The notes under the pieces: model-generated
The model's input: only the letters and a program-made list of their open reading frames with translations
Told to the model about the DNA's origin: nothing
The model's database searches: none
Translations under genes and position numbers: made by a program
In this document: positions 35,441-63,373 of the stretch, piece after piece
How the letters are laid out: the number at the start of each line of letters is the position of its first letter
Numbering within the stretch: position 1 is the stretch's first letter
DNA from: Euglena gracilis
Lineage: Eukaryota
DNA length: 64,000 nt
Assembly (NCBI GenBank): GCA_039621445.1
Contig: CP154954.1
Location: forward strand, 29,397,411 to 29,461,410
Direction of reading: 5' to 3'

Positions 35441-35475
<35 letters not shown>

Positions 35476-38400: not shown

Positions 38401-41400
38401 ACCGGGGGGGGGGGCATGCTATGGCACTGCTCCCCCCCAAAAAAAGAAGCCTGCCCCTGACCCCTGTGAACCCACCCCCGACCAGCCCCTCCCCTGGACA
38501 GAAACGAGTTCTCTGAAACTCACAACTTGGGGGAGCAGTCGTAATCTGCCTCCATCCATCCACCCACCCACTTGCTGGACATCGCGCTGGGCACAAGGGA
38601 TGAGTGGCCGGGTGAAACCGATCCAGGCGTTTGCAGAAACCCAGGAGATCGCTTCACGTGACTGAATGGATTGCTGAGTAATGTGGCATTTTGGCCGGGG
38701 GGGGGGGGGAAAGAGGCCAGCGTCCTGCCACGGCACTTCGCCACATGATCCCGCGCCTCCGTGAACAGCTGCAGGCGGTCCAGGGTCGCCCCGGCATCCA
38801 CGCTCAGCCGCTCATACTCCTGTAGCGTGGCCTGAGCCACGCACAGGGGCCAGGGGTGTGGGCAGTGGCATACACCGCAAGCCATCGCACAACACCCCTC
38901 AGGGTGCATCACACAATATTGGTGGAAAAAACTTGCACAAATGCTGTTGCCTTGCACACGGTCAAGGTCAACCTTTCTGTTTCAGTGAATGAGATGCAGT
39001 TGTACTTAGGATCATACAATTGCTTACCGACCCCCCCGGGGGGGGGGGCACTCCACTTTTTTAAAAACCAGTCAGTCACTCATTTTCAAAACGCCAGCCA
39101 GTCACTACCCCCCCCCCCCGGGGGGTTGGGGGTCGGCCACTCAGAAAAACGGCCACTTTCCAGTCACTTTAGGCCATTTTTGGCCCAAAAAATTTTTCCG
39201 GCCTTCGGCGCCGGGGTCACTCAAGCCACTTTTGCCCACTCCTGGCCGACCCCCCCCGGGGGGGGAGGGGGTCCGGGCCAAAAACCAGTCAGTCACTCTA
39301 CCGTCAGCGGGGCTACCACCGCTCGACGGTGCCCTATCCTCTGTGGGATGAGGTGGTAACCACTTTGTGGTGAACGGGTGCACAGCCGGTAGCGTTGTAT
39401 CTTTACCTGTCCTGCCTGTTCCTTCTTATCCCTCCCCCTTCTCGCTCCGGAACGGCCCTTGGTGCTTGAGAAGTGTCCCAAGATTTTGGGTGGAAAATGG
39501 AGTGTCTGGCTCTTTCCCATATTGAATCTTTTGGTTGGACACGTTAAGGAATGATTGCTGCCAATCTTTCTATGTGTGCCATACGCGGGATGTGCCTATT
39601 CATGGCAGAACATATGAACTCCTGTAAGCCTAGTTGTGATAGCCATGTACGTATTGATGGCAAATCACAAAAACAAAACAAAACAAAAAAAACTTTTTTG
39701 ACAAATGATATTGACATGTCTGGTTATTGGAAAACACACACAAAAGAAACAAGCCGATAGTCCCATTGGTTATTTGTGCATGGTACGAGAAGCATGGGTT
39801 GTGACGTGTGAGTGTGTGTGTGCGCATGCATGTGTACTATTTTATATCCAATATATATATATATATATATTGATTTTTTTTCCCTCACTTCCAAAGTGAA
39901 TGCCTTTTTTTTTTATCCTGTCCCTTCCCATCTCAAAATGACGTTGGAAGATGGTTAACCCACTGGAATGTGTATGACCATCTTCATTTACGTATGTTTG
40001 GGCTTGCCAAATCTTGAAAAGGAAAACATAAGAGGATGTCTTTCTTCTGGCTCCATTTTCTATGTCCAGCTTGCTTATTTTTTATTTTATTTTATATTGG
40101 TTTTCTTATTTTATATTATTTTTTTATTTTATTTTCCTTCCCCATTCGTGTTTTCTCTGTCCAGGGATCCTCACACGTCCGTGCTGGCCGAGGCCAAAAT
40201 GTATCCGTGATTTTCTGTGAATTTCCGTGATTTTCCGTGAATTTCCGTGAATTTCCTGTTTCCGGAAAAGGTCAAAGGCCACATTCCATTCTGCACTGGA
40301 GCCATATTTGGGCGGTTGTGGCAGCAGATCGTTTCTCCATAATATAGTCCTGGAGATCCCCCAGTTCCTATTCACACCTGTATATGAAAAAAAAAACGTA
40401 CAGGAGGGGAAAAAACAACCTTTTGTCCTTGAATTTTTTTTTGATTGCCCCTAAATGGGTTGCCAAAACCCTGTCAGCAGACCGATATAGCGATTGACCC
40501 TTCCGCATGCAGCCTGGGCGGGAAGGTGGAAAGTCATAAAAACCAGACGCCCTCAACTTGTGTGTATTTTTGGAGAACACCTCTGATGCTCTCGAGGTCC
40601 AATTTTGTGACCGGGAGACCAGAATGGAGGAAAACGGCCACAAAATCATCTGTGATTGTCTGGGTGAGGTTTCGCTTAATTCACCGACTCCCGAAAATCC
40701 AACTGCTTCAGTGGAGTGTCCTGGCTAGGAAGAAAAATTACAAAAAAATGAATTGGACGACATTGTCTGTTTGGAAAGGCAGAGAATAAGCAAAGCATCC
40801 CATCAAAATGTGTCTGCACAAACAAAACACATTCAAAGAAAGACCAATTTTTTTTCCCGAACCCTCCTCCTCATCCGTGAATTTCCGTGATTTTCCGTGA
40901 TTTCCGTGAAAATGGCCTTCCGCCCATTTCCGTGATCCTCCGTGAATTTCCGTGAATTTCCTTTTCAGGACGTGTGAGGATCCCTGCTCTGTCCATTCCC
41001 TTTCCCCATGTGTTGCAGCCATTGTTCACCCGTTTATGTTTCGGCATCTTCACAGCTCTTCCCGACAGTTTGATGGCCCACTTCACGGCATTGTCGCTGG
41101 AGGAGCAAGCCTTGGCGGCTTCCCCAAAGACAGCCTTCCCGATTATGTCAGTGGGGAAAGCACCTGACACCAACGAAGTAGTGGTGTCAGCTCGCATCTA
41201 TTCCTCAAAAAAGGAAGTGCACCGTATTCCAGCATCATCGGGACCATGCCTCTCCTCAGTAAATTACCTCTGCATTGGCCCTCCCTCTCCATTTCACTCA
41301 GAAACACACACTATCTCATATTCATATTCACACTCACACATGCGCGCCTCTCCCTCTCTCTCTCTTATCTCTTATCTCTTCTTCTGGTTTCCATTTGTTC

Positions 41401-44400: not shown

Positions 44401-47400
44401 AAAGTGTTTCTGCAAATATGTTTAATCTTCCTTGAAGTGTCAAGTTCAAGGCTTTGGATTTCATTTTTATCAACCTGGTTTTTTTATTGCGGCTGTCGTT
44501 TTTCTTGGTTCTTCTTTTTTTGTTTTATTATATGGCATCCGGTTTTTGCGGTTTTTCTTTTGGGAAGGGCAGGATACAATAATTGAGTGTGTAAAGTAAA
44601 GTAGTCGAGGTGGTGCAGGTTGAGCTTTTAAGAAAATATTTTTCGTTTTTTACCGTTAATAGGCTGTTTGAAAAAGAAAATATTTTTCGTGTTTTACCGT
44701 TAATAGGCTGTTTGAATCCTTTCCTTTGCCACCTTACAAAGGTTTGTCGGTCCACAGTGGGTGTAGTTTAGGGTCAAGGGCATTGTGATGATCATTTATT
44801 TGGTTTTTTTTGGTTTTTATTTGTTTGTTTTTTTTTTCTATTTGGTTGTTGGTCTTGTTTTTGGAACCCGATGCAACCTGGTTTCCAACATGGGACTTCG
44901 GTGGGTTGCACTCTGTTGTTGATCTTCCTACGCTTCGGGCTGCTTTACTGGGCCTGGTCAGAGGGATTTCCTCAAAAACCCAATTAAAAGCCTTCCAAAG
45001 GCTTGTGGAGGAGCATCTTAGGAAACAACTTCCCTCTACGTCTGCAGACCACAGCGTTCAGGCTTTATGTTAGGTTAATTTTAAGTTTCTGTTTGTTTGT
45101 TGCGTTTTCCCCCTCCCCCCCCCCATTTTCGTTGTTCTTATCTCTCTCTTGTTTTCTAATTTTTTGTTTTTTTTTTTTTTTTTTTTTTTTTTTTATTTAT
45201 GGAGCCTGCTGAACCTGATTGGTTTCTGCAAGGTGAGCCCACAACGCTGTCCCATCTTCTCCAATCCTCCTCGACTCTCACGGGAGCTACAGAGAGTCCT
45301 CGTGTTGCTCCCACCGAAGGACAGGAGCGTCCCAAGCCCTCATGGACCGTCAGACCGCTGGAAGAGCAGCAGGGCTCCGTGGTCCGTGTTTTGAATTTAT
45401 CTCGTCAGTTCAGTCCCATGGCGTACACAGAAGCTTTGAGGGAGGTTTTGGATTCTATGGATGTGGTCACGCCAATGAACGTTGATCGTGGTTTTTGTCA
45501 CGTCACGATTCCATGTTATAAATATCGCGAGTTATTTCGGACTTCTGACATGGCGGAAGTGAAGTTGGCTTCTGGGTTATCTTTCAGAATCCGTGGGCGC
45601 ACTCCAGAAGGGGAACCTTACATCGATTTTCGGAGTTCCGCCGCGAAAAGACCCAGGATCGAGGCCGGATCCCGTCCACTTCTCTCGCCCACTTCGTCAA
45701 CACCAGTACTAGCACGTGTTGGTGTGCATCCCATCCCGAGTCCCCCTCCGACTCCGCCGTCATTCTCACGTTCCACGGTTGACTCTTTCGCGAGTTCGCC
45801 TTTCGCCAAATTACCAGCCTCTTTGGATGATATCATGCCGGTTTTCACACATTATGCTCCTGATGTTGGTCGTTTCTACAATTGGTTGTGGATCCCTCCT
45901 CTTCCTCCGGCAGCCTACATCCCCCAGGATTTCCTTCGTCTTTTTGGCCCCGCCATAATCAGCACAAATAATCAGGTCAAAGTTGATTTCCTCAAAGAAA
46001 TAGTGCAGAGATTGGATTGTGTGGACAACCATGGTTTCTATTTTGAAAAGACCTGCGATGCCAAGGGATGTTGGAATTGCGGGTCTGTTTTTTCGGCTGA
46101 TAGTTTGTGTCCGGGCTGTTTGAGTAGTTCGTTTTTCTATATTCCGTGCGACACACAAACAAAATCCTTAATGGGTAATGTGGATGGGTCGGATGCTTTG
46201 AAATTCATCCTCAAAGGGCTGCAACAGACCTCAGCCACTTGGTCCACCATGTTGTCGTCGGTGGCGAGCAAATGGGCTAAAATTCTCCTTAGCAGGCCTC
46301 GCCTTCTGTCGACGGGTGGGGTCTACGTGTCCCCTCCTATCATCAATGATGATGCCTTTTTGGTGTTCTTTTCGATTCCCAAGGATATGCCTCCTCCTCC
46401 CAATTTTCCCATCCCTCCCCTGACCAATGAGGAAGTGCGGTGCATATACTCTTCTTTGTGCTCACAATGTGGAAGGCCCAAGGCAGAAAACATCAAAATT
46501 CTGACAAACACACTGCCTTTTTTTGTCAAGAGTGCGTTGTGCATCCGTTTGGATAAGGGACAAACTTCTGCCAACAAAGTTTTTGCTCAACAGTCTCGTT
46601 GGAATCCTTATGGTCTTCCCCTGGAATTTGTGTTACCAGTCACTCCTCGTTTTTCGTTTGACTGCAACCCGGAACAGCCACCGCCCCCTGATCTCAGGTT
46701 TTGGGTGAAGGAATTGGATGCAAAACTGCCCCCGCTTGTTGATGTCACCAATACTCGAAATCCTGGTTGTTGGAGGATCATGGATTTGAATTGTGGGGGT
46801 GGTTCCTCGCTACCTGCGGTTTGTGATTTGATGTCACTTTTGGATCCAGACTTCATTTTTCTTCAGGAATTGTGGGAGACCGACCCTCGGGACGAGATTG
46901 CTTTTCGCCGATATGTTATATTCCTCAGTGCATTCCGTGATCGTGGTCAAGGCTTGTGTATTATGGTGCATCGAAGGGTGTTGTGTCCCAATTCTGCATC
47001 GAGATCCTCCCCTATGATTCTCCATGATTGTAGATCTTGGTTAGCTCTGGGGTTTCACGTGGGTTCTTCATCTTTCCTTTTGATCAATGTGCATCTTGAC
47101 CCTTCTTTCAACATGAAACAAAAGGTGGAGGAAATGCATTTGATGGGTGCCTTGATTCATAAGTCCAAAGCAGGCTGTCTGGTGGCGGGTGATTTCAACA
47201 TACACCGGACAGCACATTCGTTGATGGAACACTCAACACGTGCTTTCGGTGTCCCGGGTTTGAGGATACCGTATCCTATGGGGCTCCACACAAATCACAC
47301 ACGAGCAGGTAATCGGCTTTCCGACACAGAGATTGATTATATATATGCAAGTGATTTTTTCCCCCTCAAGTGGCATGGCCTGATTCCGGGTCCGTCTTCC

Positions 47401-50400
47401 CATGATTGTGTGGTTAACGACCTCATTATACCACATGTTTTTTCTAATTCTCCTTCCTGGAAGAGGTATCAGTTTGCTAATGTCCCCGCTTCAAAAATTC
47501 AACAGGTGGCAATACTTTTGTCATTTTTCTGGTTTTGGTTGCGTGGTCAAGGTGCACATCCCAATTTGTGGCTCCGTGTTTACTGGTTTTTGGCTGATAG
47601 AGTTTTTGCTCCCTATGATCAACACTCCTCGGCTAAGTCTCTCATACAATTGGGGTTGGCATGTGCCGACCGCCGCTCGAGTGATCTTCTCATGCAATGG
47701 CGGAGCAAATGTGTGGAGCATCGTTTTTTGGCTGGTTTGCAACTCAGCCATGAAGTCGCTTTGCAAATCAGCCCAACCTCCTTAACAACAAAATTGATCA
47801 ACACATGTTCCAAAAAGCCGGGGCCGTATCCCAAATTAGCTTCTGGCCGGGGGGAGGATGGGCAAACTGGCAAGACTTCGGAAGAGGAAATCATCAGTCA
47901 ATTTAAAATGTATCATGCCAATCGGGGTTTATCCATGAATGTGGGTCATTTGTATGCAGACCTTGATGTGGTATCAAATCTTCCACAGGATGATCCCTCT
48001 TTCTTTCATCTATTTGAGGCCCGTCGTGAAGGGTTATGGAACAATGATCTCATGAGTCGGCGCCTGCATCTCTTGGCTCGGCCAATGTGACGCTTTGATT
48101 CCATCCGAGGCATCACAGAGTCTCTGCGTTGCGGAGGTTCCAATGCCACTTCATTGGATTCGCTCCCCATGGCAGTTCTACAGCACTTTACCTTGGCAGG
48201 CATGGTGGCTTTGAGCCATTATGTGTTTCTTCTACGGGGTCTCCCAAAGGCTCTGAGCAATGAAGTCATTCAATTGGCCATTCCCAAGGGTGGTCCACAA
48301 CATTTGTTCACTTCCTATCGGCCCATCAAACTCGGATCCGCCATAAACCGTGTGGAGGCTGGGTCAGTTCATTTAGAGGCAAGTTTTCGCGCTGAAATGG
48401 ATGGTTCTTTCACATCCAACCTCTACTCTTATCGGAAGGAAGTGACTCCTTTTATGCTTGCCTTTGCATTAAGGTCCACAATTTTGCTGTGTTTGAAGGA
48501 AACATCAGAGGCCCACATTTTGGATGGTGATGAATCGGGAGCTTTTGATACTCCTGTTCGGGAGGATTTGGCATTGTTGGATCATATGTGGAAAGGCCAA
48601 TGTGCTTTTGGTAGTTGGGCTCATCGATTTTACGCCACCCAGAGAATTCGCCTTCTAACACATGAGGGTTTGACACAACCGATGAAGACAGGGGATGGCC
48701 TGTCACAAGGTTGCAAATTTGCCCCGACCGCTTACAACCTAATTGGCGTTGGGAGGAACATAACCTTCATGAAATCATTTCAAAGTACGTTGTGTCACAA
48801 CGGCTTACCCCTATGTGAATTTATCTATAGTGACGATCGCCGATGGGTCAGCCCCTGTGCGAATGATTTGGCTATTGCGGCACGAGTTGCGAATGCTATC
48901 TCACAGGAAGCGTGTGCAATCAATAACTTGCAAAAAATGAAGTATGTTGCTTTGAAACGCTGTGCTGATGGTTCCATTTGTACTTTTCGAACCGAAGTTG
49001 CCATCAATGATCAGTGGGTGCAGTCTGTGTGTGAAATTCCTTTGATGGTGGGGTTATCAATGCAACCAGGTGCTATAAATCCTTCCCTACTCCCCAGAAT
49101 CAAAATTCGCTTACAAAAATTGCGGCAATTCATAAAGAAATTGAATCCAAATTTCCTGTTGACTTTACGTTGTACAATAGCGTATGCGATATCAATACTG
49201 GATTATTCCTCCCGGGGCTGTTTTGTTCCATCATCAATTTTGATGAAAGTACAACCTTTCCTTAATCAAGTAATAAGTGCATGCCTTTCCTTCCCCCCAG
49301 ACACCCCCATTTCACTGATGACTCTCCCCATGGCACATTTTGGTTGGGGCTTTCCAAATGTGACTCATCGAGCCCGACTCCAATTTATTTTGGGTTACTT
49401 CGAAGCAATCGATGGTAGGAACAATTTGTGTAGATTCGTGATGCGTCAATCTAGGGATGACTCCGGTGTGCAGAGTGACTATGCTTTGATTCGTTCTTTA
49501 TTTACCCAATATGATCTCTCCGAGGTTGTTCCAGCCTCATTTTTTTCCCCATGCCTACCCAGCCTTTGCCTTTCACTTCAGCATGCCTCCGTACTATATA
49601 TCACAACGGATGCTTCGCTAGTCTCTCTGCAGGATGGTGTGTTCGATCTTCAACGAGCGGGGTTGGGTGTTGTCATCACGGATGGCATTGTTTATCAAGA
49701 GATCTCGTGGGGGTTCTGTTCCGTGGCAGCTTGTTCCACTGATCTGGAATGGATGGGGAAGCTTTTGGCAGTTTGGTTGGTGCGCTTCTTCCGGGGCAAG
49801 ATAGTACTGTTGTGTGACAACTCATCCGTACAACTTTGCAACTTCACACAATGGGTGAAAGTCTCTCCTTGGGTGGACCGTTGGGCAAAGATGATTTTGG
49901 GTTTGCCGGTTTGGGATCATATCACGGAGGGGTGGCTTCAGGCGGAACACGATTCACTCTCTCAAGGATTGGCATGTTCGTGGCAGAAACGGGCAGATTA
50001 TTTGGCTGGTTGGGGCTCAACTCATGTGGAATCGGCTGGTTTCCCTTTGGCTGATATGCTCTCTTCTCTGGCGGACCCCCCCTTTCCTTTGTTTTGGATG
50101 GAAGGCTTGATCGTTTCCTTGAAGAGATTTGTGACCAAGCTCTACGAACTGTGCACTTTCCGTGATTCAGTCGCTTTCGCCACCCTGAATGCTGGTGCCT
50201 TTGTCGTCTGATTTGGAAAAAGTTGGTTTTATCAAGTGATGTTCCATTGGTCATGCACAAAGTGGCAGCCTACCTGCGTGCTGTGCCCTTTTTGTCTCGG
50301 AGTGCTCATTACAATGTGGAATGTCGGTTTTGTCATGCCGAGGTCGGTTTTTTGCCCAGGCACATTGTTGGATGTGTGGGATTGTATGAAGTATTGATCA

Positions 50401-53400
50401 AGGCTTTCTCGGAGGTCCTGCAAACAGTATCAACAGGTTCACTGGGTTCAATACTGGAAAGGTCGGACTTGGCTGCGGTTCTGCAATCTCAAAATGAGAG
50501 GTGGGTCATTGCACTTCTTCCTGAAGAAAACGTCGTCCGTGTGCGTCATTATATAAAGAAAAAAGGTTTCCTTTTGCTGTGTGTTACATGGTCGGGCCTC
50601 ATCAGTGTACCACATCGATTGAGTATGCTTTTCTCCACAAGTGTTCGTTTGGAATTGTGTGCCATAGTATTACGGACATTATCAGCTGCCCCACGAGGAT
50701 TCTTCACAACATCAGATATCGACATTCCACCGCACACCAATTTTCGGGGTTTGGTGGGTTGGTCAAGCAACGACGCACGTGGGTGCCAACCGTCTTTCCG
50801 GGTCCAACGGAGGCTCGCATGGATCTTGCTTGCACAATTTGGAGGGTGGTCGTTTGTGTTCTTCTTCTCGTTCCTTGTCGGTATACCTCCCCCCCCCCGA
50901 TGTTTGTATCCACCTGACCTATTTGATGTAAGGGTTTTTGCTTGTGATGTTAACCATTGTTTTGTCATCTCTAACCATCCTGGGAGAGGCCCTGCATGCG
51001 TGCTGTGTGATTGCCACATAACAGCTCCCTCGTATTGGCATCTCCATCGCTCCTATTCCGAAGGTGCGCTGTACATCTCAGCAGACTTCGGCTCATCGCC
51101 CCTCTAACCTCCAACACAACGCTTCGATCAGGGTGCTCCACTTCATGTGTTCTTGTGTATGTCTGTAGCTCATGTATCCTCTTCCCCCCCTATTCATCTA
51201 CCATCGCTATGTCAAGCACCAAGGGCATGCGCACTTGCTCATTAACCTCTGCCATGGTGTGCTATACACACTGCGATGTACCGTACGGCGATGTACCCTC
51301 TGCAATGCGATTTTATGGATTGCATCGTTTTGGTTGGTGCTGCCCTCTTTCCACCCTGGTCCGACGTGAGTGGTTGTGATGTTTGGGTTGACTCTTTCCG
51401 CTCTCGTTTGGTAGGGCTGTGTTTGTGCTCGAGTTGTTTGTGCTGCCCCCTTCCCGCTCTCGTCCGGTAGGGCTGAGCGTGTGCTGGTGTTGTTCGTGCT
51501 GCCTCCTTCCCGCTCTCGTCCGGTAGGGCTGAGCGTGTGCTTGTGTTGTTCGTGCTGCCTCCTTCCCGCTCTCGTCCGGTAGGGCTGAGCGTGTGCTTGT
51601 GTTGTTCGTGCTGCCCCCTTCCCGCTCTCGTCCGGTAGGGCTGAGCGTGTGCTTGTTTCGTTCGTGCTGCCCCCTTCCCGCTCTCGTCCGGTAGGGCTGA
51701 ATTGTTATTTTATTTTATTTTATTTTATTTTATTTTTCATTTTCCTTCCTTCCCGCAATAAATGCTAAATAAGCCCCTTTCGCGTTGCCTGTACCCGCCC
51801 AGGCTCACCAAACCAAACCAAACCAGTCAGTCACTCTGAAAAAACCAGTCACTCACCCCTCGGGGGGGGGGGGGGTCGGTCAGTGCTTAAGCAATTGCCT
51901 GCTTAGGATGCCAATCGATGAGAATATCCTCTTGTAACCTCAAAATAACCTCAAAATTGCACACCCAAAGAGAGGATTGGAATCGACCTTGTCAAAGCGC
52001 TGCTACTCACAAAAAATAGCAATCGGTTCGGAATCATGGTCCTATCTCTTAGAGGCTGGCTGCTTCCCTCAAATAAAGCGCATCACAACGGCTATTTCAG
52101 AAGCACCAACGTTGATTGCAGCTTGCACACTGACCGTTAAAATTTGTTCGAAACAAAAAATGGGCGTAAAGCTGCCACACCCAGATTTTTTTAGGACCCG
52201 GGAATATCCCGAGGGGTCCAAAAAATCTCAGCGCTTCGCACCAAAAATAGAGGAAATCCCCCCTGGGGAGAGGTTTCACTCTCACTCAGTCCGAACCCCC
52301 CCCTGGGCCTTTAAATTTTAAAAAATCTCTGGGCTGCCAAGAACAGAACGCAGCCCAGCAAAACCTTCTGCGCCTCGGAGAGGATGGGCTCGCTCTTCCT
52401 CAGCAGCTCGGCGCTGGCACACGCCTCTGCCAGGGCAGAACGGGAAGGCCTGGTGGGGGGGTCGACCCCCCCACCCGGGAGGTGGGGGGGGGTGGGTCAA
52501 CCCCCCCACCCACCACAGCATTTGCACCAATTTCGGGGAAACGGGGATTTTGGCCAGAAAAATTTTTGCTTCTTTTTTGAAAAATGAACCCAAAACACAT
52601 GATTTTTTGATGGAAAACCACATTTTTTTCACAAAAAAATCTCAAAATTTTCCGTCCTAAAAACTGGGACTTTTTAGGGGGGGAAACGAAGGTCAAAAAA
52701 AGTGGACAAAATTTTGGCACAGTCAAATTTTACTGACATTTTTTCTCGTTGAACTTTTTTGGACTTTGAATAACATTTTTTGCTTCAAAAACCTCTCAAA
52801 ATCACCCTCTTGAGAAAATGTCAAATTTTTTGAAGGTGTGAAAAAATGGGGTTTTGGGTGGGACCCCCTATGTGGGTCCCAAAATGGGTCAAAAAAACAC
52901 CCGGCACCGAAGGCGCCGAAAAAATTTTTCGTGTCCAAAAAATTGGTGCTCCCGGAAATACAGGAAGAGGTGGGAGGGCCGCCTCCCCCCCCCACCCACC
53001 ACTCTGGCTGTTCGGCCGATTCCCGTTCTGCCCTGGCCTCGGCCCAGAGCTTCTTGGCCGCCTTGCAGTTCCCCTTTTCCACCTCTGCGGGGTACTGGGC
53101 CACGGCGACCTCCAACCGGCTGGCACTCTGCGGAGAAGGTCCGGCCCGGCCTCGCCATGCGGAACCCTCCCTACCCCCACTACGCCAAACCTGCGGGAAG
53201 CGAACCTTCGGAGGCGTCCAGAAGGGGAATGAATGAAATCCAAAGCAGACGGAGCCATGGGACTGGCAACACTTTCTTTGCGCTCTCGGCAAAGCAGCAG
53301 GGGCGATAAGGCAAAACAGAGGTATTTTTTAAAGGACCCGGGGTTCACTCACCCAGCACCCAGGCCCCCTGGGGGGCTGGGAGAGCCCAATTTCAAGGAT

Positions 53401-54291
53401 CAGTTTGGGCAAATTCTTTTCAGTGCGAAGAACCGAAAACAGAGGGGCCTCCCCCTCTCCACAGGGTTCCCACTCAGCCTGACCCCGGGGGGGGGGGGGG
53501 TTCGGACCCCAGGGTACGTGATATCGGAGGCCCTTGGAAAACTGCCGGGAAATTGCGGGAAAAAAATTGCGGAAATTGCAGAAGAATTGCGTGGAATTGT
53601 GGTTGCAGTTTTGGGATTTAGCACATTTCTTCCAGAGAGGACTTAACAAAATTTCACAAATTTGGTCATTTTGCAACATAGATGTGCTTTGAGCCGTTAT
53701 TCACATTTTTTTGCAACAAAAAGGTCCAAAAGCATCATTTTGTAGTTTGGGAAATGATCCTGGAAACATGGAATTCCTTAGGTCCAAAAATCCAAAAAAA
53801 AGACACAACAAATAATTGGAAAAATTTTGTCTCGGGTAAAATCTGGTCCAGGATACTTTTTGAATTTTTGCTTTTTGGGTTTGAATTTTCCTCAGTCGAA
53901 AGTATTTCCCACAGAAATTGGGAGAAAACCTAAAAAAAAAAAAGCTGAAAAATTACCAAATTTTGTGAAATATTGTAAATTCTGGCAAATGTTGGCAAAT
54001 TTGCAAAAAAAAAAATCAAAAAAATCACTTGGGGTCCCTTGTGACATGTTCAAGGAATGGCCAGCATTTCACCTTCAATCTCAGGTTCAAGCGGAAAAAA
54101 AATTGCGGAAAGGGAATAAAAATGCAGAATAATTGCAGAGAATTGCGAAACTTGCAGAAAAATGGCGGATATCAATCCCCCCCTGAAAACCCACATCACC
54201 ACCAGGTCACCATTTTTTAATATAAAAAAAAGTCTGGTGCAAGTGAAAAAAGTGAGAGCCCACATACGCTGGTGACTGCTTTCTGGTCCAT
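30500..54291 (-). CDS. Helical/coiled-coil protein with C-terminal FYVE zinc finger
   Basis: Proposed exons: 54268-54291, 53039-53127, 52365-52425, 38737-38831, 37503-37583, 37187-~37240, 36253-36367, 34856-34924, 34234-34329, 33708-33848, 30945-31043, 30500-30616. The C-terminus WEPDSTHCSVCRKEFTFVRRRHHCRVCGCVACDKCC...RVCVRCV* carries the WxxD, R(R/K)HHCR and RVC FYVE motifs. Confidence 0.82.
35344..35796. mobile_element. MITE, 17-bp perfect TIR CAGGCTTTTGCTTAAGG, 8-bp TSD
   Basis: GTCTGCCC is duplicated at 35336-35343 and 35797-35804. Confidence 0.93.
36368..37186 (-). other. Nonconventional intron of the FYVE gene
   Basis: atc gt|gcg CAGGGCC ... GGCCCTG gcggt|a ccc gives a perfect 7-bp stem with N3/N5 spacing. 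Joins LEDIVPAQAE. Confidence 0.82.
37649..38240. mobile_element. MITE, CAGGGCAGAACGGGA family, intronic copy with divergent right end
   Basis: Left TIR intact at 37649. The body matches 52431-53035. Confidence 0.78.
40162..40986. mobile_element. MITE nested in the retrotransposon, 19-bp perfect TIR, 7-bp TSD
   Basis: CAGGGATCCTCACACGTCC / GGACGTGTGAGGATCCCTG. CTCTGTC at 40155-40161 and 40987-40993. Subterminal TTCCGTGA repeats. Confidence 0.92.
41880..44030 (+). CDS. Putative spliced ORF1-position protein inside the retrotransposon, unknown function
   Basis: Coding-like blocks are joined by phase-compatible GT-AG introns 41897-41934, 42179-42745, 43049-43308 and 43415-43771. Further coding-like blocks lie at ~41040-41245 and ~44860-45062. 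Ends uncertain. Confidence 0.55.
45199..51107 (+). pseudogene. Retrotransposon pol: Cys-rich N-terminus, AP endonuclease, reverse transcriptase, RNase H, CCHC finger; one in-frame TGA and one frameshift
   Basis: APE motifs DLNCGG, FLQELW, AGDFN, IDYI. RT motifs IPKG, SYRPIKL, DESGAFD, GLSQG, YSDD. RNase H motifs ITTDAS, TDLE, LCDN, RADYLA. C-terminal CRFC-x9-HIVGC. TGA at 48088-48090 is in frame with ORF 48154-50211. A -1 shift occurs near 50208. Confidence 0.92.
51395..51700 (+). repeat. 56-bp tandem repeat (~5.5 copies) in the retrotransposon 3' UTR
   Basis: Unit TTCCCGCTCTCGTCCGGTAGGGCTGAGCGTGTGCTTGTGTTGTTCGTGCTGCCTCC starts at 51451, 51507, 51563, 51619 and 51675. Followed by (TTTTA)n and AATAAA. 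Confidence 0.95.
52431..53035. mobile_element. MITE coinciding with a FYVE-gene nonconventional intron (52426-53038)
   Basis: Perfect 15-bp TIR CAGGGCAGAACGGGA. TSD GCCTCTGC (52423-52430) / GCCTCGGC (53036-53043). Removal gives KKLWAEACASAELLRK in frame. Confidence 0.92.
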
Positions 54292-54904
54292 GGGGCAAGC
54301 AACAGGCGGCACTTCTGGAACATTCAACGGCCCTTCGGCTCCGTGAATGCCATTGAGCAGCAGCACCCACCAAGCGCCTGGAGAAAAGCAACAGAGCAAG
54401 CAAGCCAGGTGAAAACTTCCGTTGGAGCGTCGTTTTGTGCACCCTGTGTTTGTGGGAAGAAGACACCTTTCCGGCGAGACCCATATCTGCATATCTCCCA
54501 AGGAGGGCAAGAACTGTGCAAACAGATATTTGTTATGTGCAAACATTAATTTGAACAATTGGCACCCAGCCACCAGACAACACGGCGGTAGCCCCACCCT
54601 CATTGAAGGTGTGCAGGGGCAACTTACCAACAGGTTGCACTGAACACAAAAAAAGCAGCACAAATGCAAAAGCCGTGTCCCACGTCGCACAGCTTCGAAG
54701 GGTCAAAAGGCGCTGTACAGTGAAAAAAAGGATTCTCGCAGGGTGAGCAGCGTGAAAGAAGGTGCGGCTGACGTCTGGATTGCCCCTCGGGCACAGATGC
54801 CAGGGGTGTATCAGTCAATGCGCCATATGAACTCAAATGGCCGGGAAAGCCCAGTGTGGTGTGAGGTGCAAACACATGCGGCCTCGGGCTGCATCGCGTT
54901 TGTA

Positions 54905-57900
54905 TTACGAGGCCAGGATCTCGATGTTGATCATCTTGATGTCCTTCAGGGGTTTGTCTGACCGATCGGTCTTGACCTTCTCGATGGCCTGCACTACGTC
55001 CATGCCTGTGCCAAGTTAGCAGTCGGGATGTGTTTGCGCGCACAGGATTTTGATGAGAAAAAAATCCTGCATGTGTGCAGCAGACATGGAGTCTTCCACA
55101 TGGGTTGATAGGAGGGTTGGATGCACGTGCCAAGGGAATTTATACCTCAAATGAAATAAAGAACGGAGGTGCTCAAGGACCCCGCAGGAGGTCCAGCTCA
55201 GAGGCTGGAAAATTTGGGCTAGTGGGGGGAAAAAAGGCTGCTGGCTGACCCTCCCCCCAAATCGGGGTACCGGGGCTGGAGCTTGGGTGATTTTGGAGAG
55301 AAGAGGAGCACCCCCCCCCCAAACCACTACAAACCAAGTCGCTGACACTTTAATCCAATTATTACAATTTTCTGAGGCGCAGGCCCAAAATTTGCTTGCA
55401 GTGCTATGTTTTAATTGGTGGACTAAAATTCCACACCCTGTTGACCCTATACAATACTGAAACCAAAATCTGGAAAAAAAATTGGGGCCTTCTGGATCCC
55501 ATCCCAATCCCAATCCTTCCCAAAAAAAAAAACGAAATTCCCAAAGTGTCCCAAAAACTGCCAGTTATTCAAAAAAAAATCTTCTTTTTTGACTCTAAAT
55601 TTGCCTGGCCACCTGTTTCTTACCACTTTCGCTAATTTTAGGCCAGTTTTTGCACACCAAAAGGCGAAAGGCCATTAACCGTCCATCCGCCCTTCGGGAG
55701 CCTGGAAATAATAATTACTAATTATTAATTTTTTTAATTTAATTATTAAATTTAAAATTTATTAATTAAATTATAAAACTCATTGTTGGGGGGGTCCCAG
55801 GCTGGTAAAAAAAAGCTGCTGGCAGGGATGGACCCCCTGTGGGGGGGGGTCAAGAGTTTTAAAGCACCGCTCTGCTTCTGATAACCTGTCGCCGTGTTGA
55901 TAACCAACCTATCACATGCGTAAAATCCCCACTCTCGGTTTGTGCATGGGTAACCGGCCTTTTAGGGGTGTACTTTTGGGTCGCTTTTCAAGTGTGCTGA
56001 CAAAGGGTCTTTTGGCCTCCCTCAGGAGTGGGAAAATGTCCATAAATGCATTTGGCTTTGGCAAGGAGAGTGTGCCACCAAGTGCACTGTCAACGAGGGC
56101 AATTGGATGGCCGTTATTGAGGGGCATGGCCGCGGCACGGATGCACCTTTGGTACCCCCACCAAATGGCCGCGGCACGGATGCACCTTTGGTGACCCGCC
56201 CGAAGATGGTGTGCTTGCTGTCGAGGTGCGGGGTGGGGACCGTGGTGATGAAGAACTGGCTGCCGTTGGTGTTGGGCCCTGGCCAACGAGAGGCAGTTTA
56301 TCCGGTGTGTCCACCAAAGGCGAAAGCCATGAGCAATGCAGCGACCTATGCCAATAACGCAAAACAAGCCTGGTCGATGGGCACATGAAAGGGGAAGGTT
56401 GGATCTGTTATACTCCTGGCCACACCACTCTGGACATAATACATGGTGGGGTGGTCGAGTGGTCGGATTGTGCTGATCACCCAAAGAGTGCTGCTCCTTT
56501 ACTTATTGAGTTATTATTCACTAAGACAATTCTGAGAACAAGCCACCACAATTATTCGGCCTCGGCACATTATTTCTTTTTTATAATTTGATTTCATTGG
56601 AAAATTTGAACCTTGCACCCAGCTGGTGCATCTGGGTAAAGAAAGCAGCCACAGCGTACACCTGCGTTGGCCATGGCGACAATGAACGGCCGGTCAAACT
56701 TCAGCCCCTTGCTGAACTCATCCTCGAAGTCCTCCCCCCAGATGCTCTCGCCACCCCTTCCATCCCCTGCAAACACCGAACTCCAGGATATGTCCAGTCT
56801 GGGGGGGGGGGCGGCAATCTGATGCTCATGAATGGCGGGCTTGACAACATTTCTTTTTCATTTTTCAGCGCGGTGATCCATGAGAAAATGAGTCCACAGA
56901 ATTGATCCCTCTGGAAATTAGGAACTCCCATGCGGCAGACAGTAGAACACAGTGGCTTTTCGCAAAACGCGTGTTTGTGGCGACTGTATTTGAATACAGA
57001 GGGAGGGACTAATTAGTACGAAAGAAAAGTGGAGGCAGAAAAATGCAGATGGGAAATTTCCGCGGTGTGACCAAAATGTACGGAAATATTTGGCAAGATT
57101 TCAGGAAACAATTGGCAGAATGTCAAAAAAAAACAGAAAGGAATTTGAATCTCATGAACGCAACTCGTTATAACCTCACCACATGATTCAGGTCTGATTC
57201 CAAAGCTCATCAGCAAATGATCAACTGCCGAGTTGCCTCCAAACAACTTGTGTGCAGATGGCACAGAGACACCAACAGCTTGCACCTCTTGGCAGGCAAG
57301 GAGGACGGGGCATCGAAAACAGGGGTATTATTTGGGTATTTCCAAAAAAAACGTGTGGAAAAATTTGGCAGTCTCAGCCAAAAAAGGTCGAGAAAGATTT
57401 GGCAGGATTTCGTTCTGCCAATATTTTCCTACCACTTTTTTGGCAGCCAGCACTGTTTTGGCTCCTAACAAATCTTTCTTGCAAATTTATGCCTTTCAGC
57501 TAAAACTCTCTTTGGCCGAACAATGAATGGCAGGCAAAGCCAAGGTGTCAGAGCGCAAGCCACATGAGTGAATGATCGATCCTGTCTCCCTTGGGCATCC
57601 AATCGATGTAGGAACAGGCAGGTTGCCTTGAAATCTCTCGACATTTGAACTTTCAAGGGGGGAAGAAATCAGTTTTGAATGTCGATCAATCACTTCTGAC
57701 CCCTGGGGGGGGGGGTTCCAGTTACTCCCTCCAATCAGACCAAAACAGACCAACTACCTCAGGACTGCATCAAATCAAGAGGACGCCGCAGACACAACGG
57801 AGAAACAATTGCGGCGTTCCTTCCCATCATTCGCCAACAGAAAGCAGCGGCGCACCGCCCGGGTCCCCGGTCTGGAGCATGAAGCCCTTGATGACCCGGT

Positions 57901-60486
57901 GGAAGAGGTGCCCGTTGTAGTAGCCCGCCCGGGAGTGGGTGGAGAAATTCTCCACCGCCTTGGGGGCCCTGTAGGGCCAAGGCAGTGGAGGGCACACGGA
58001 ACGGCACACAAATCTCAAACGAGTTCGGCAATCCTCTGCTCAAGACCTCAATTGCTCAGTGTGCACCGTTTTCATATTTGGGGGGTGATCTCTACAACGC
58101 TCCGTAAATGTGCAGGAGTGCATCTGCATGCGAGTGTCCATCCCATGAACTCTGAGGTTAAAATGTTGGGATGCTTCAACCAATTTTGGATGCGAAGACC
58201 CAGAGGAATCGATGTGGCCTTGCGATCAGTTGGAAAACTCAAGCGTCAGCAGACTTTGAATTTAGAAGTATAACGTGTCCGGGGAAAACGCCAGCTTCTC
58301 GGCTTTTTAATCGGCGTTAAAAGATGGCCGATTGGCGTAACAGCACTTTGAGTTATTGGCTTTCCTGGAACAAAAGAATCCTTCTGGTTAAGGGATCATG
58401 CCTGTCAGGTGAGCGTCATTGTGGCACCCCCGGACAAAACCTTGATGAAATGCGCAAGAGGATGTCGTTTTTGGCTGAAATTCATTTTGCTGCACAACGT
58501 GCAACGCCAGCAGAGCTGAATGTACCTTTTTAGTTAACTGCCTCATAACCACACCTGTTTTTGTGGGGGGAAAATGAACACACAGAATTGAATTTGATGC
58601 CTCCTTTGTTGGTCAAAAGCGAATGCTTGAATGAAATTCTCCAAAAAAAAATATCTTTCTGTATTCAGAGAGGTTGAAAGCAAAATAAGGGTGTCCTTAA
58701 ACTCGCAAGCAATGCAACCAACGGCAGCCACACTCGTCAGGGAACAGCTTGAGGTGGATGTCCCCCATCGTGGTGCGGATAATGGCAGCCTGGCCCAGGG
58801 TGAGGTTGGATGTGACCGCCAGAGCGATCTCCTCCTTGGACAGCTTCTCATTGAACACGTCGCGGCCCTTTGTGGGGTCCCCCCTGCGCACGTGAGTGCG
58901 TGGGGGGGGGGGGGCGGGCCACCAAATGTTTTCCACGGCTGAGAAACCATCAGGGGTGCTGTGGGACGATTTTCACCCGGGGTGCACCCCACCTCCCCTT
59001 CTGTCAGACCCCAAGCGTGGGGTTGGAAAGAATGGGGGTTTTGGTCTACAGTTTCAATGCACATCGGCCGGAAGTGAGCACTCCAGCAGGGCTGCACAGG
59101 AAAGTATGGGGGGGGGGGTGGACGAAAGTACGTGGGGGTGGTAGGACTTCCTTCCATCCATCACACAGAAAGAAAAATTCCCTCCACATCGAATGCGCCG
59201 AAGGAAACTCCCATCTAAAAATTGGTCCCACTGGGGAAAAGGAGGGGGTGGGGAAAACGGGGAGGGGGCAAGGTGGATGGACCCAGCCACCACGGTGGAG
59301 ATGGGAGTGGTCGACGCCCCCACCCACCCCAGGGTCTCTGGGTATCCCCTTTGCCCTCCGGGGCAGATCCCTTTCCCAAAATTAGAAAACATCGTCAGCC
59401 CTCTTGTATGAACTTCCTCCAAAGTTAAGAGCTGGGGTTGAGAAAATTGCTCTTTGTTTCCATAAATGTGTTATCAAAGGTCCTTGCGTACCTCCTCCAG
59501 ACAAATTCACTCCTTCTTCTTTTGACACAAAAAGAAGGGCTGTTTTTGTCGCCCGTTGACTCCAATTTTTAAGCAGCCCCCCGGGAGCCCAGTGACACCA
59601 AATGAAAGCAGCCCCAAAACGTAGGCACCCCCTTGGCGGCAAAGCCCAAATGCACGCGGCTGGTTTAAATGGGGGGCGGAGGCTCCAAGGGCGCACTCGT
59701 CAGCTTCTTCAGGCTCCCTCCGGCTGAAGATGTAGAAGCGGACCCGCTTGTAAGCCACGCAGAAGAGGGAGGGGTCTGGCTGGTCGAAATCCACTTCTCT
59801 GTCAGGATGGCAAGGGCAATCTGGAAGGTCTGAACTGTGGGATCATAAAAAAACCGTAGGTGCATTTCCTTCAGGCATCACGATATTCTGAAACGCAAAT
59901 CCCAGCAGGTGGGTTGCAATGTCTTTTTTCTGTCTCAAGGTTCGGACAAAACAGGGGGTCAAGCTGGCCGCTTTTGAACAGCGTTACAGAACACGAGGCA
60001 TCAAAACTGCACCGAATTTGCAGCCATGCTCATAAATTTTTGGTTTGGGCCATGCTATTTGAGCAGTTGCGCAAATGGATGTTTTTCAAAGTCGTCACCC
60101 CTGGAAGCCAAATCTGTGTAATCCAACCATGGTGCCCCAAGCAGCAGGTCTCCCAGCATATGGGACACACACCAAGCATGTGTGTTTTGGGAATATGGTT
60201 GCCTCATCAGTATAAGATGCTATCGGAACAATTTCGGGAAGGTAAGACGGAGTGCTAAACCACACCTTTCACTTTGTCTTTTTAAACTTCTCTGGTCCAC
60301 AGTTGCACAAACGGACCACTTGTGCAATTTACAAATGGTCTACTTTTGTAAGTTGCACAAGTCATGTTGCACAGTTTGCACATTTGTGCAAGTCATCCGT
60401 TTGCAGAATTGCGCAAATGAACCACGTTCACAATGTCCCAGACGGACCATTCAGTGGATGGATTTGCCTTATTTTGCGAAGACTTC

Positions 60487-60575
<89 letters not shown>

Positions 60576-63373
60576 AACAACAACAACAACAACAACAAAT
60601 GAAATCATCAAGATTGAAGAGTAACAAAAAACCCTCTTCTGGTGCCAGGTTGGACATCCACAATTGAACCTGTGAAAAAAAAAATTTACCCTGAAATTCG
60701 AAAATGCCCTTCACCACCTGTGTTTCATCGAGAAATGAAATTCAATTCATTGGCTGCGATTGAAAGCTTTCTGACTTAAAAAAAAAAAGAACATGGCGTT
60801 CGGGGAGCGTTTTGTGCAATTACCTGACGCGGTTCCTTTGACCCTGTAACATGTGACCTTGTGGACGCCGTGATTCCACTCTGCTCCGCCCATGCCATTG
60901 CTTAGCGACATCCGGGGGGGAGGGGGGGGTCACTTTCCACTCTGAAAAAAACCAGTCAGTCACTTTTTTCGGCCAAGCCAGTCAGTCACTTTCCCCCCCC
61001 CGGGGGGGGGGGGGTCGGCCACTCAGGAAAACCAGACACTTTTTGGCCTTTCAAGGCTATTTTTGGCCAAAATTTTCTCCGGCGCCTTTGGCCCAAGGCG
61101 CCGGTTGGCCACTCAGCCACTTTTGGGTGATTTCTGGCCTACCCCACCCCCAGGGGGAGGGGGGTCACGGCCAAAAAACCGGTCAGTCACTCTGAAAAAT
61201 CCAGTCAGTCACCCCCCCCCGTGTGCACTGTGGCTGTTTTTTGGTGCCTTTTATCCCTTCTTCTGGCCTGGCGCTGTTGTTCGCCTCTGGCCCTTTTGTC
61301 TGTGTACGTGGAGGTGGTCACCCATACCCCGGCCCGGCAGCGCGACCCCAAAGGAGGCAGGGGGACAGATTGTGAAAAAGATAAAGGACGCTGGACGGTC
61401 GCAATGGATTTTGCGCGGCCATAGGCCCACAATGGGGTGTCACTGAAAAAGTCATGCGGCCCGTGCCAGTGGCGCCCAACTGGCACCCTAACCCTGAATT
61501 TGTGGCGGGTGCATCAGTTGGGTACCTATGCCAAATATAATTGAAAATCAAAAAACTTTTCGTCCACTTGCGCAATGGCACAAGTGAATTTTTGAATGGT
61601 CCACTTGCACGATTGCGCAAGTGGACAACTCAAAGAATAAAGCAAAGTTTGCAGGGAAGAGGTACCTAGGATCAATTGCACACATGGTCCAATTCAACAC
61701 CAACCTGTGCCAGCCTGTTTGGAGCCGGAAATTCAATGCCATGATATTGTGGTATTCCCTATCCTGTACACCTGTGGTTCTGGATTATGATGCAGCCAAC
61801 TTGCCACAGAACAGAATTGGTTGCTGGTGGCACTCCTGCTGTAATCTTTATTCTGTCAACCTGTTTGTACTAACATAACTCCAATACCACCAATATGAAA
61901 ATCTTCCACAGGTCCTCGACCCCCAGAACACCATTTGGTGCTGGCAAGAAATGCGCAGGACAAAGCCAGGGTTTTGGTATATGGGAAACTTAAATTCCTA
62001 ATTTCCCACGGTCAGGGGAAACAAAACCTGGCATTACGTTACGGAGGGCAGAAAACACGAGATTTTTGGCTTTCCACCAGACCTCAGCCCCGAAAAACAG
62101 TGTTAATCCACATACACCCCAAAAGACCCTCCCCCAAAAATAAGACCCCCCCTGGGCCGATCAAGCAAAATTCAAAAATAAGACCCCCCATAAATAAGAC
62201 CCCCCTGGCGGCGCGAAGCGCCGGGGACGGCGAAGATTTTTTCCTGAAAAATTACCAAAAACCCCAAATTCAGACGCAAAAGTGATGAAAATCAAAAAAT
62301 TTTCAGATTTTTGAAGTTCAAAAAAAAATGTTTAAAATCAATTTACACCAATTTACACATGGCACAAAGCGCCGAAGGAAAAATTTTAGTGCTCTTTTGA
62401 ACCTGAAAAATGGTGGTTTTTCAGGCCCGGTTCGGTCAAAAAAAACAAAAATGAGACCCCCTCCAAAAAAGACCCCCCTGGAGGCTTCCTGCAACACACC
62501 CAAAATTAAGACCCGGGTCTTATTTGGGGGGGGGGGGACCATCATATAACCAACAGTTCAAAAACATGGGTTTGAAACCCCGGGGGGGATGGATTTGCAA
62601 CATGCGATTTTGGTCAGCAGAGGGACGTGCAGCACACCGGGCAAGGTCCTTCTGTGTAAGCTGGAACACCGCCTGGTTTTGCTGCACGGTGCCCTGGAAC
62701 AGCGCGACCTGCATGAAGCGCTCCGTCCCCTCCACCTTCCCCAGAAGACGGCTCAGCGTGTTGGTGGGCAGGTGGACCACTGTGACGCAGCAGACAGGAC
62801 ACAAAAATGCTTCCAGCCCCACATAAAATGCACTCCGCCGTGTTCCTTCATCACAACTGGAAGTGCGATGGCAGTTGCCGGATAATGGAATACCACCTCA
62901 TGCTTGGAAATGAAAGCCCATTACACAAAACGTCGATTTGGGTCCATGGGTAACCCCCCCCAAATTGTCGCCCCCCCCCCAAGGGGGGTGACAAATAGGG
63001 GGGGGGTCACGTTATCAATAAGGCCCACCGCCCTCAACAGAGGTGTTAGGGAATACACCATAACAACCCCACAACATACAGCAAATGAATTCCGAATCTC
63101 GGTAGGCTTCAAAGAATAGAAGGGACGGGACAAAGTGCCCGAAACGGCCGAAAATTCCTCCCCCCCCCCTGGTCGCGGCATCACAAGCGGAAAATGAAAC
63201 ATGTCAACCATCAGGAGTAAGCAGAACCTTGTGAGAAAATGGGCACTGAACCCTTCTTCGCCTTTGTGCCTTCCGGGAATGGAGAAACCCCACACCTTTG
63301 ATGCCCAACAGAGTGGCATAGATGAGGAAGTGCCCAGATTCATCAAAGGCCGTGTTGTATGGCCAGCAGGCTC
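54905..63373 (-). CDS. PPWD1: Peptidylprolyl isomerase domain and WD repeat-containing protein 1 (spliceosomal cyclophilin), 3' portion
   Basis: Exons 63296-63373, 62638-62779, 59697-59798, 58734-58883, 57856-57968, 56662-56766, 56186-56278 and 54905-55005, all GT-AG and phase-compatible. Reads [19 protein letters not shown]..., RDVFNEK..., [76 protein letters not shown]. Confidence 0.95.
55165..55875. mobile_element. Degenerate MITE related to 17308-17752, in the last PPWD1 intron
   Basis: Shares CAGAGGCT..AAAA..TGGGCT and AAAA(G)GCTGCTGGC blocks. Ends eroded. Confidence 0.55.
60486..60598. repeat. (CAA)n microsatellite
   Basis: Direct read. Confidence 0.98.
60891..61220. mobile_element. 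Truncated MITE of the CCAGTCAGTCACT family
   Basis: Starts CATGCCATTGCTTA and has the same internal repeats as 28172-28517. Right TIR missing. Confidence 0.7.

Follow-up and report, generated by a model that had tools for sequence, protein, structure and literature searches.

In the FYVE gene of Euglena gracilis, a MITE flanked by a target-site duplication (TSD) splits the coding sequence between codons 37 and 38, and 613 nt, corresponding to the element plus one 8-bp copy of the duplication, are precisely removed from the RNA, leaving a colinear protein. Very probably, the MITE inserted into an exon and is excised from the pre-mRNA by the nonconventional splicing of euglenids. The locus lies in a stretch of 64,000 nt (the window), onto which the transcript-derived protein P0003 (eukprot:EG_transcript_11399, 387 aa; Pfam FYVE, E=1.2e-10) was mapped as 14 exons on the minus strand, running from 54291 to 30503. 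This exon map and the colinear protein bear out the original prediction that the MITE interrupts the coding sequence of the FYVE gene. P0003 runs uninterrupted over the MITE site (...KKLWAEACASA...), and no gap opens over it in the alignment with three orthologues (70, 49 and 48% identity; one named Eutreptiella gymnastica), in which AKK.W is invariant beside the junction. P0003 and the window disagree at two residues in exon 3 and in a few further places, which implies that the gene has a second allele or paralogue. The features of the locus, in sense direction, are:

54268-54291, minus strand: exon 1, coding part (MDQKAVTS); the intron after it, 54267-53128, is GT..AG
53039-53127, minus strand: exon 2 (SASRLEV...KKLWAE), with the joints 53127 to 54268 and 52422 to 53036
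52426-53038, minus strand: intron 2, the MITE intron, at the N3-CAG...CTG-N5 cut; 613 nt
53036-53043, no strand: TSD copy GCCTCGGC; in sense orientation the upstream copy, GCCGAGGC
52431-53035, no strand: MITE body, 605 bp, with an AT-rich interior and subterminal palindromes rich in G/C; belongs to a multi-copy family
53020-53035, minus strand: right terminal inverted repeat (TIR), matching the left TIR perfectly as its reverse complement
52431-52446, plus strand: left TIR, CAGGGCAGAACGGGAA, 16 nt
52423-52430, no strand: TSD copy GCCTCTGC; in sense orientation the downstream copy, GCAGAGGC
52365-52425, minus strand: exon 3, encoding ACASAELLRKSEPILSEAQK
37649-38240, no strand: sister MITE copy inside intron 4 of the FYVE gene; right terminus missing, 86% identity over 444 nt
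30503-30619, minus strand: last coding exon, with the FYVE zinc-finger core RRHHCRVCG...RVCVRC
29131-29684, no strand: sister MITE copy located downstream, past the FYVE stop codon; left terminus without its first CA, 77-93% identity in pieces

The MITE and its precise removal from RNA

A 605-bp MITE with perfect TIRs had been predicted at this site, and its 16-nt repeats enclose exactly 52431-53035. On the plus strand, its borders read GCCTCTGC / CAGGGCAGAACGGGAA...TTCCCGTTCTGCCCTG / GCCTCGGC. GC from either flank extends the 16 nt of the element to an inverted repeat of 18 nt with 100% complementarity (52429-52446 with 53020-53037). The flanking 8-mers are identical at seven of eight positions, for which we calculate a chance of about 4e-4 (at least 7/8). 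The element thus combines a perfect TIR and a flanking TSD with the small size and the presence at unrelated loci (three copies in the window) that define a MITE. Its 15-nt terminus has four exact occurrences within the window; allowing up to two mismatches gives five matches against 0.16 expected, a number reached in none of 100 shuffles. The sole difference between the TSD copies also lies where it had been placed: under the N3/N5 cut, the first 5 nt of the downstream copy are intronic, and the mRNA joint retains the upstream-copy base at 53041, not the base at 52428.

The evidence from RNA consists of reads and contigs of runs X21, X24 and X1, while the kinds assigned to runs X1-X19 are guesses. 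The joint between 52422 and 53036 skips exactly 613 nt, i.e. the MITE (605) plus 8, and is carried by 27 reads in X21 (14+13; 20 starts), 14 reads in X24 (11 starts) and one contig in X1. None of the contigs of the DNA-like run X20 contains this skip, with the locus covered at a word depth of about 50-80. The neighbouring introns have similar support, with 41 reads in X21 and 11 in X24 for the upstream intron, and 20 reads in X21, 13 in X24 and one contig in X1 for the loose end of exon 3 at 52364, which resumes at 38830. RT template switching at direct repeats was ruled out as the source of the joint, because its counts in X21 are on par with those of the neighbouring introns (27 vs 41 and 20). 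In X24, all 14 first mates map to the plus strand, which fits minus-strand RNA in a stranded library. The RNA junction foreseen in the original prediction, in sense TGGGCCGA^GGCGTGT, is present in the reads as this exact sequence, and the flanking blocks, which had been expected in one mRNA, are joined there together with the FYVE exon. Like a nonconventional intron, the 613 nt are missing from the mature mRNA, and the precise removal of the MITE with one TSD copy is confirmed.

Splice code and competing routes

Six equivalent cuts ('both=5') are compatible with the reads, from 52423-53035 through 52428-53040. Cut+3 reads GGC-CAG...CTG-GCAGA^G and satisfies the N3-CAG / CTG-N5(6) rule with a purine starting the next exon, as laid down in the accessible text of PMC12501133; the reads fit all six cuts equally. 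According to that text, the nonconventional code 5'-N3CDG-/-CH'GN5-6^R-3' was genetically defined in Nomura et al. 2025. As far as the accessible parts of Milanowski et al. 2014 (PMC3935182) and Nomura et al. 2025 (PMC12501133) describe them, euglenid nonconventional introns carry CAG at +4..+6 and CTG at -8..-6, set off by spacers of 3 nt and 5 nt, and the exon that follows begins with a purine; their ends pair, and direct repeats render the junction 'slidable'. At cut+3, the MITE intron matches them in all of these. Pairing of the intron ends is seen both in the 18-nt complementarity and in the predicted fold, where both the MFE and the centroid structure have the intron closed by the perfect 18-nt stem (z = -7.8, 0 of 20 shuffles as good). 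Because the six cuts yield identical mRNA, the data are consistent with the 5/3 split and say no more. The proposal that 3 + 5 nt equals exactly one TSD therefore holds in part: the geometry fits the reads and equals the spacers given in the accessible text of PMC12501133, while the split itself, as one of six fitting cuts, is not demonstrated.

In the favoured scenario, a non-autonomous DNA transposon (605 bp, with 16-nt CAG...CTG termini) would have landed at codons 37/38, duplicating 8 bp. In the pre-mRNA, the two termini would pair and bring the intron ends close, and the nonconventional system would then cut 3 nt before CAG and 5 nt after CTG. We infer three of these elements, namely the arrival by transposition into an intact exon, the choice among the six cuts, and the nonconventional, non-spliceosomal pathway as the cutter. 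The N3/N5 route would be expected to release a full-length circular intron RNA joined at ...CTGGCAGA^GGCCAG.... The frame is restored without a scar, because the extra 8 nt removed are one copy of the duplication.

It is unlikely, but the most serious competing view, that the conventional spliceosome removes the MITE as a GC-AG or 'hybrid/intermediate' intron, so that the nonconventional geometry would be a coincidence of an AGGC-containing target. Such a route is possible because cut+2 (GAG^GCCAGG...CTGGCAGAG^GCG) is a GC..AG option, the only one among the six cuts, none of which is GT..AG, and because the sense 3' terminus of the intron, UUCCCGUUCUGCCCUG, is pyrimidine-rich (13 of 16). Nonconventional introns are characterised by the lack of GT/GC..AG borders and of a polypyrimidine tract, and by spliceosome-independent excision as full-length circles. 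Cut+2, an option missed by the original prediction, fits the reads as well as cut+3 does. GC..AG is also the only option for intron 9 of the FYVE gene, where it is apparently used, and introns bearing both motif sets amount to 0.8% in the accessible text of PMC12501133. However, at the GC cut the 5' site is GCCAGG, whose C at +3 and A at +4 both depart from the conventional introns nearby, since all nine neighbouring GT..AG introns read GT[G/A/T][T/C], with a pyrimidine at +4. The nonconventional code, in contrast, is fully present in the MITE intron, which also has the 18-nt closing stem.

That splicing plays no part and the joined RNA derives from a MITE-free allele or paralogue is highly improbable. 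The joined form, and with it an empty, MITE-less site, is found in 0 contigs of X20 despite the word depth of about 50-80, although contigs drop rare variants and the differences between P0003 and the window point to more than one version of the gene in the species. Furthermore, the variants listed for the RNA runs include none in exon 3, which means that the window's own allele is the one in the joint reads. Just as little probability is given to an intron-first history, in which a nonconventional intron turned mobile, e.g. via its excised circular RNA, in place of a transposase-driven MITE turned intron. Circular excision products of nonconventional introns are cited in the accessible text of PMC11282704 and PMC12501133, and no transposase was found in the window. 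Against this history stand four unrelated CAG-ended elements with perfect 8-bp duplications, at least one of which sits inside a conventional intron (35344-35796). RNA-mediated reinsertion would not be expected to yield 8-bp target duplications.

Sister copies, related elements and transposon class

Both sister copies named in the original prediction are real, and the one at 37649-38240 is indeed intronic, the other being putatively intergenic, but both are degraded, each with a defective terminus. The TSD of the copy at 29131-29684 is uninformative because the copy sits in a G run. Of the three copies in the window, just one forms an intron by itself. In run X20, the summed word depth reaches 280,532 in the bin 52401-52801 vs about 50-150 in single-copy bins, and a variant at 52596 is carried by at least 57 distinct contigs; depth and contig variety are a rough sign of a high MITE copy number and give no count. 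A metagenome scan with the 27-nt MITE terminus returned no matches.

The window also holds a class of CAG-ended elements with 8-bp duplications. Among its 99 CAG-start inverted-repeat pairs, perfect flanking repeats occur four times at length 8, once each at lengths 7 and 3, and never at lengths 4-6 and 9-11. CAG follows an 8-bp duplication directly in the MITE and in four other elements, and the four CAG-ended elements with perfect duplications are mutually unrelated in sequence. Reading-frame continuity across these other elements is uninformative, the GC-rich sequence being open in many frames.

An 8-bp TSD and short TIRs starting with CA are typical of hAT (or P) elements and are shared by the MITE. 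hAT elements prefer T at position 2 and A at position 7 of the TSD. The peak of perfect repeats at length 8 among the 99 pairs agrees with an 8-bp TSD, while T at position 2 and A at position 7 are each present in three of seven elements and neither in the FYVE MITE copy. Transposase families (Pfam) were absent from the 105 longest of the 210 window ORFs of at least 110 aa and from five further sequences. The suggested hAT/P origin has the 8-bp TSD on its side and no transposase from the scanned window ORFs behind it, and the hAT assignment is unproven. The Merlin elements of Euglena gracilis (PMC8101967, accessible text) resemble the MITE in their 8-bp TSD and occur in the same species. Their TIRs begin with GG in all families covered by that text, whereas the MITE starts with CAG right after the duplication, and a Merlin assignment was ruled out on this rule.

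Relation to known introns and introners

Introner elements, as portrayed in the accessible text of PMC11282704, provide a close parallel, since here too a short TIR-bearing DNA transposon in an exon is removed from RNA with sequence equal to one TSD and coding is restored. Known introners, however, bring along or co-opt the GT/GC..AG sites that the spliceosome uses, with TSDs of 3-5 nt in the cases described there. In the MITE, in contrast, the TIR ends (CAG/CTG) serve as signals, together with fixed spacers adding up to an 8-bp TSD. Introner families also have many near-identical copies that serve as introns across many genes, whereas a single MITE copy, one of three in the window, is known as an intron in its own right. 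Unlike the nonconventional introns described in the accessible literature, the FYVE intron has as its body a multi-copy transposon that can still be recognised, with an 8-bp TSD nearly intact, and its sister copies do not form introns of their own.

A MITE-like origin of nonconventional introns had been suggested before, as the original prediction acknowledged, and is already in print in PMC3935182, PMC11282704, PMC12501133 and PMC12621601 (accessible text). According to PMC3935182, as far as its accessible text goes, transposable elements of euglenids had yet to be identified when it appeared. In the accessible parts of these four papers, no bona fide transposon family is described as acting as such an intron, and no statement links the spacers to TSD length. 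A statement that N3+N5 equals an 8-bp TSD was not found in the literature searched, which lay outside subscription journals; a TSD-length signal may already be contained in the direct-repeat lengths and intron lists that supplement PMC12501133.

The original prediction went further and equated the nonconventional code with the TIR plus one TSD for any such MITE, in either orientation. This generalisation has one spliced case and the TSD statistics of the window behind it. The FYVE gene contains three other introns without any GT/GC-AG option, and these fit it in part: one conforms to 3+5 but has no TSD that can be recognised, the spacers of another add up to 7, and the third shows no fit at all. 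The putative TSD of intron 7 matches at three of eight positions, no better than chance. It is conceivable, if somewhat doubtful, that one class of DNA transposons has left the nonconventional code as its footprint, and that CAG...CTG elements with 8-bp duplications are spliceable from birth, whatever their orientation, since 3+5 equals one duplication.

For the questions of how the nonconventional introns of euglenids originated and why their spacers measure 3 nt and 5 nt, the FYVE locus offers a concrete, RNA-confirmed example in line with the idea of a MITE origin. It leads to a quantitative prediction: if the two spacers together are as long as the TSD, young nonconventional introns should lie between 8-bp repeats with a 5/3 offset. 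If the generalisation is true, most nonconventional introns, which make up about 72% of the introns in E. agilis (PMC12501133, accessible text), would descend from such insertions, and the spacer rule would have been shaped by the need for a scar-free erasure of insertions.

A MITE within the coding sequence of a FYVE gene

The MITE is 605 bp long (52431-53035), and its flanking 8-mers are identical at 7/8 positions. On the plus strand, 52423-53043 reads GCCTCTGC (flank), then CAGGGCAGAACGGGAA ... TTCCCGTTCTGCCCTG (element ends), then GCCTCGGC (flank). A repeat finder paired 52429-52446 with 53020-53037 as an inverted repeat of 18 nt, 100% complementary, which comprises 16 nt of the element plus GC from either flank. 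The 15-nt MITE terminus has four exact matches in the window.

Exact matches to the 15-nt MITE terminus
29670-29684, minus strand
37649-37663, plus strand
52431-52445, plus strand
53021-53035, minus strand

A fifth match in the window carries two mismatches; five matches compare with 0.16 expected, and this number was reached in 0/100 shuffles. Both sister copies are genuine yet degraded. Relative to the 52431-53035 copy, the one in a G run (29131-29684) lacks the first CA and shows 77-93% identity in pieces, while the one at 37649-38240 is missing its right terminus and is 86% identical over 444 nt.

An 8-bp duplication combined with short, CA-starting termini characterises hAT or P elements, and by these criteria the termini and duplication would point to a hAT or P element. 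No transposase family was detected among 105 of the 210 ORFs of at least 110 aa in the window. Merlin elements with 8-bp duplications are reported from E. gracilis, but all of those begin with GG (PMC8101967), versus CAG here, and Merlin was rejected.

The original prediction that the element lies within FYVE coding sequence is right: mapping of the database protein P0003 over 14 exons places it between codons 37 and 38. P0003 (eukprot:EG_transcript_11399, 387 aa, Pfam FYVE domain with E = 1.2e-10) was retrieved with the exon that comes after the MITE-flanking exons; its EG prefix presumably denotes the Euglena gracilis transcriptome. It matches 14 minus-strand coding exons from 54291 to 30503 at 94-100% identity, the FYVE motif itself being located by motif scan at ~30600-30520, and it is unbroken over the insertion site (...KKLWAEACASA...). 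Two residues of exon 3 differ between P0003 and the window, so P0003 derives from another allele, strain or paralogue. P0002 (145 aa, called on a 1000-nt contig) matches ~38600-39000 on the minus strand, running from an intron through the 38.8 kb exon into the following intron without a break, which probably reflects an erroneous gene call made on unspliced DNA.

At 51200-51710, a peptide pattern recurs periodically in ORFs of both strands, which suggests a tandem array with units of roughly 56 nt. A cyclophilin gene on the minus strand (54774-63374) matches Pfam Pro_isomerase with E = 1e-12 over two exons; RNA reads show all 8 of its introns to be GT..AG, and its 2.8-kb intron holds repeats of very high copy number at 60822-61623 and 62025-63227, judged by summed word depth in a DNA-like contig set. 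The region 24001-26600 is a low-GC, purine-rich and TA-rich simple-sequence region with extreme strand asymmetry (GC skew 0.79, AT skew 0.56).

Removal of the element from the mRNA

Four runs were aligned to 52000-64000: X21 and X24, raw RNA-seq from two studies; X1, a contig set guessed to be RNA; and X20, the DNA-like contig set. A joint 52422->53036 skips 613 nt, and five letters at it fit on either side.

Support for the 613-nt skip
X21: 14+13 reads, 20 starts
X24: 14+0 reads, 11 starts
X1: 1 contig
X20: 0 contigs

Since 613 equals 605 + 8, the RNA lacks the element and one copy of the duplication. The base kept in the mRNA is 53041, not 52428. The predicted junction is seen in RNA reads, the sense mRNA being GCCGAGGC. 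Read counts at this joint resemble those of its neighbours, namely the upstream intron (41 reads in X21, 11 in X24) and a downstream loose end (20 and 13), which indicates efficient removal and makes a reverse-transcriptase artefact unlikely. The loose end at 52364 resumes at 38830 and thus defines a 13.5-kb GT..AG intron (intron 3), which contains a further element:

45160-51100, plus strand, LINE-like retroelement within FYVE intron 3

Its 976-aa frame carries an Exo_endo_phos endonuclease domain (E = 3e-10); the second frame that follows, of 706 aa, has no Pfam match.

Three orthologues, P0004 (70% identity to P0003), P0005 (49%, named Eutreptiella gymnastica) and P0006 (48%), align with P0003 across the junction free of gaps. 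AKK.W is invariant immediately upstream of the junction in this alignment, and WAEAC is common to P0003 and the Eutreptiella protein. The insertion thus falls within coding sequence of ancestral origin, with which the product of splicing remains colinear.

Because the duplication copies share five nt beside the mismatch, six cuts yield identical mRNA. One of them, GGC-CAG...CTG-GCAGA|G, exactly fits 5'-N3CDG-/-CH'GN5-6|R-3', a code that Nomura et al. derived from knock-in mutagenesis; in that code, the donor spacer is strictly 3 nt, the acceptor spacer 5 nt (6 tolerated), and a purine starts the exon (PMC12501133). Conventional or 'hybrid' splicing could also account for the removal, as another of the six cuts has GC..AG borders and pyrimidines occupy 13/16 positions of the sense 3' terminus. 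However, all neighbouring conventional introns begin with GT (9/9) and have a pyrimidine at +4 (9/9), whereas the GC site of the MITE reads GCCAGG, and introns with both motif sets (0.8% of introns) probably use noncanonical machinery according to the same source (PMC12501133). In the predicted fold, the MITE termini close the whole intron (MFE -283 kcal/mol, z = -7.8; 0/20 shuffles as good).

The MITE case is real, and intron 2 is very likely MITE-derived and removed without a scar. It is likely that the whole statement holds, including the use of a nonconventional route with the 3/5 cut.

Other introns and CAG-ended elements in the window

Among the 13 FYVE introns, eight have a GT..AG option and four (introns 2, 4, 6 and 7) lack one. 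For the remaining intron 9 (34330-34834, minus strand), GC..AG is the sole option (CAG|GCATGC...CACAG|G), which suggests that conventional GC-AG splicing is in use in this genome. The borders of introns 4, 6 and 7 were placed by mapping a non-identical transcript at the protein level rather than by reads.

Introns without GT..AG besides intron 2
36368-37186, minus strand, intron 7 (819 nt)
37242-37359, minus strand, intron 6 (114 nt)
37600-38731, minus strand, intron 4 (1132 nt)

On this protein-level mapping, intron 7 fits N3-CAG...CTG-N5|A; its termini start with CAGGG and are inverted at 9/10 positions, and its flanking 8-mers are identical at just 3/8. Intron 6, mapped likewise, has CAGGG after its spacer, with a spacer sum of 7. 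Both look nonconventional, and neither has further copies in the window. Intron 4 shows no GT..AG, GC..AG or N3-CAG/CTG-N5 at its four protein-compatible cuts; it contains the sister copy without a right terminus, and its 5' end (TGGCAGGACG) is similar to the more internal portion of the MITE terminus.

A search for inverted-repeat pairs (8-nt seeds, 40-3000 bp apart) yielded 11,814, of which 99 start with CAG. Perfect flanking direct repeats of these were counted by length: one of 3, none of 4-6, one of 7, four of 8 and none of 9-11.

Elements with flanking duplications besides the MITE
647-983, CAG-start, perfect 8-bp duplication
11285-11458, CAG-start, perfect 8-bp duplication
23025-23267, CAG-start, perfect 8-bp duplication
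35344-35796, CAG-start, perfect 8-bp duplication, within FYVE intron 8 (conventional)
40162-40986, CAG-start, 7-bp duplication, within the 13.5-kb intron 3
21386-22960, CAA-start, duplication 8/8

Perfect 8-mers flank 12 non-CAG pairs, all but 21386-22960 being low-complexity G, C or AT runs. The six elements have termini of 9-19 nt, and 4/7 elements, MITE included, start with CAGGG. Elements ending in CAG...CTG with 8-bp duplications therefore form a class in this genome.

The nonconventional code and 8-bp duplications

A MITE origin of nonconventional introns was proposed in 2013, when no transposable elements were yet known in euglenids (PMC3935182). A 2024 review depicts them as having TIRs together with 'TSD-like' repeats (PMC11282704), and two papers (PMC11170887, PMC12621601) only restate the MITE hypothesis. 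Nomura et al. 2025 call intron origin unclear and report junction direct repeats in 84.4% of introns (PMC12501133). The open-access main texts searched held no case of a multi-copy transposon family member as a nonconventional intron, and no statement that spacers of 3 nt and 5 nt together make up one 8-bp duplication.

The prediction that 3+5 generally equals one TSD is plausible. The window class with 8-bp duplications speaks for it, but intron 7 fits 3+5 with flanking 8-mers that match at 3/8, no better than chance, intron 6 sums to 7, and intron 4 fits nothing. As such introns age, the TSD should be lost, because the intron takes up 3+5 of the 16 positions duplicated. That the whole nonconventional code may be a footprint of 8-bp-TSD transposons is a tentative idea, attractive and testable.
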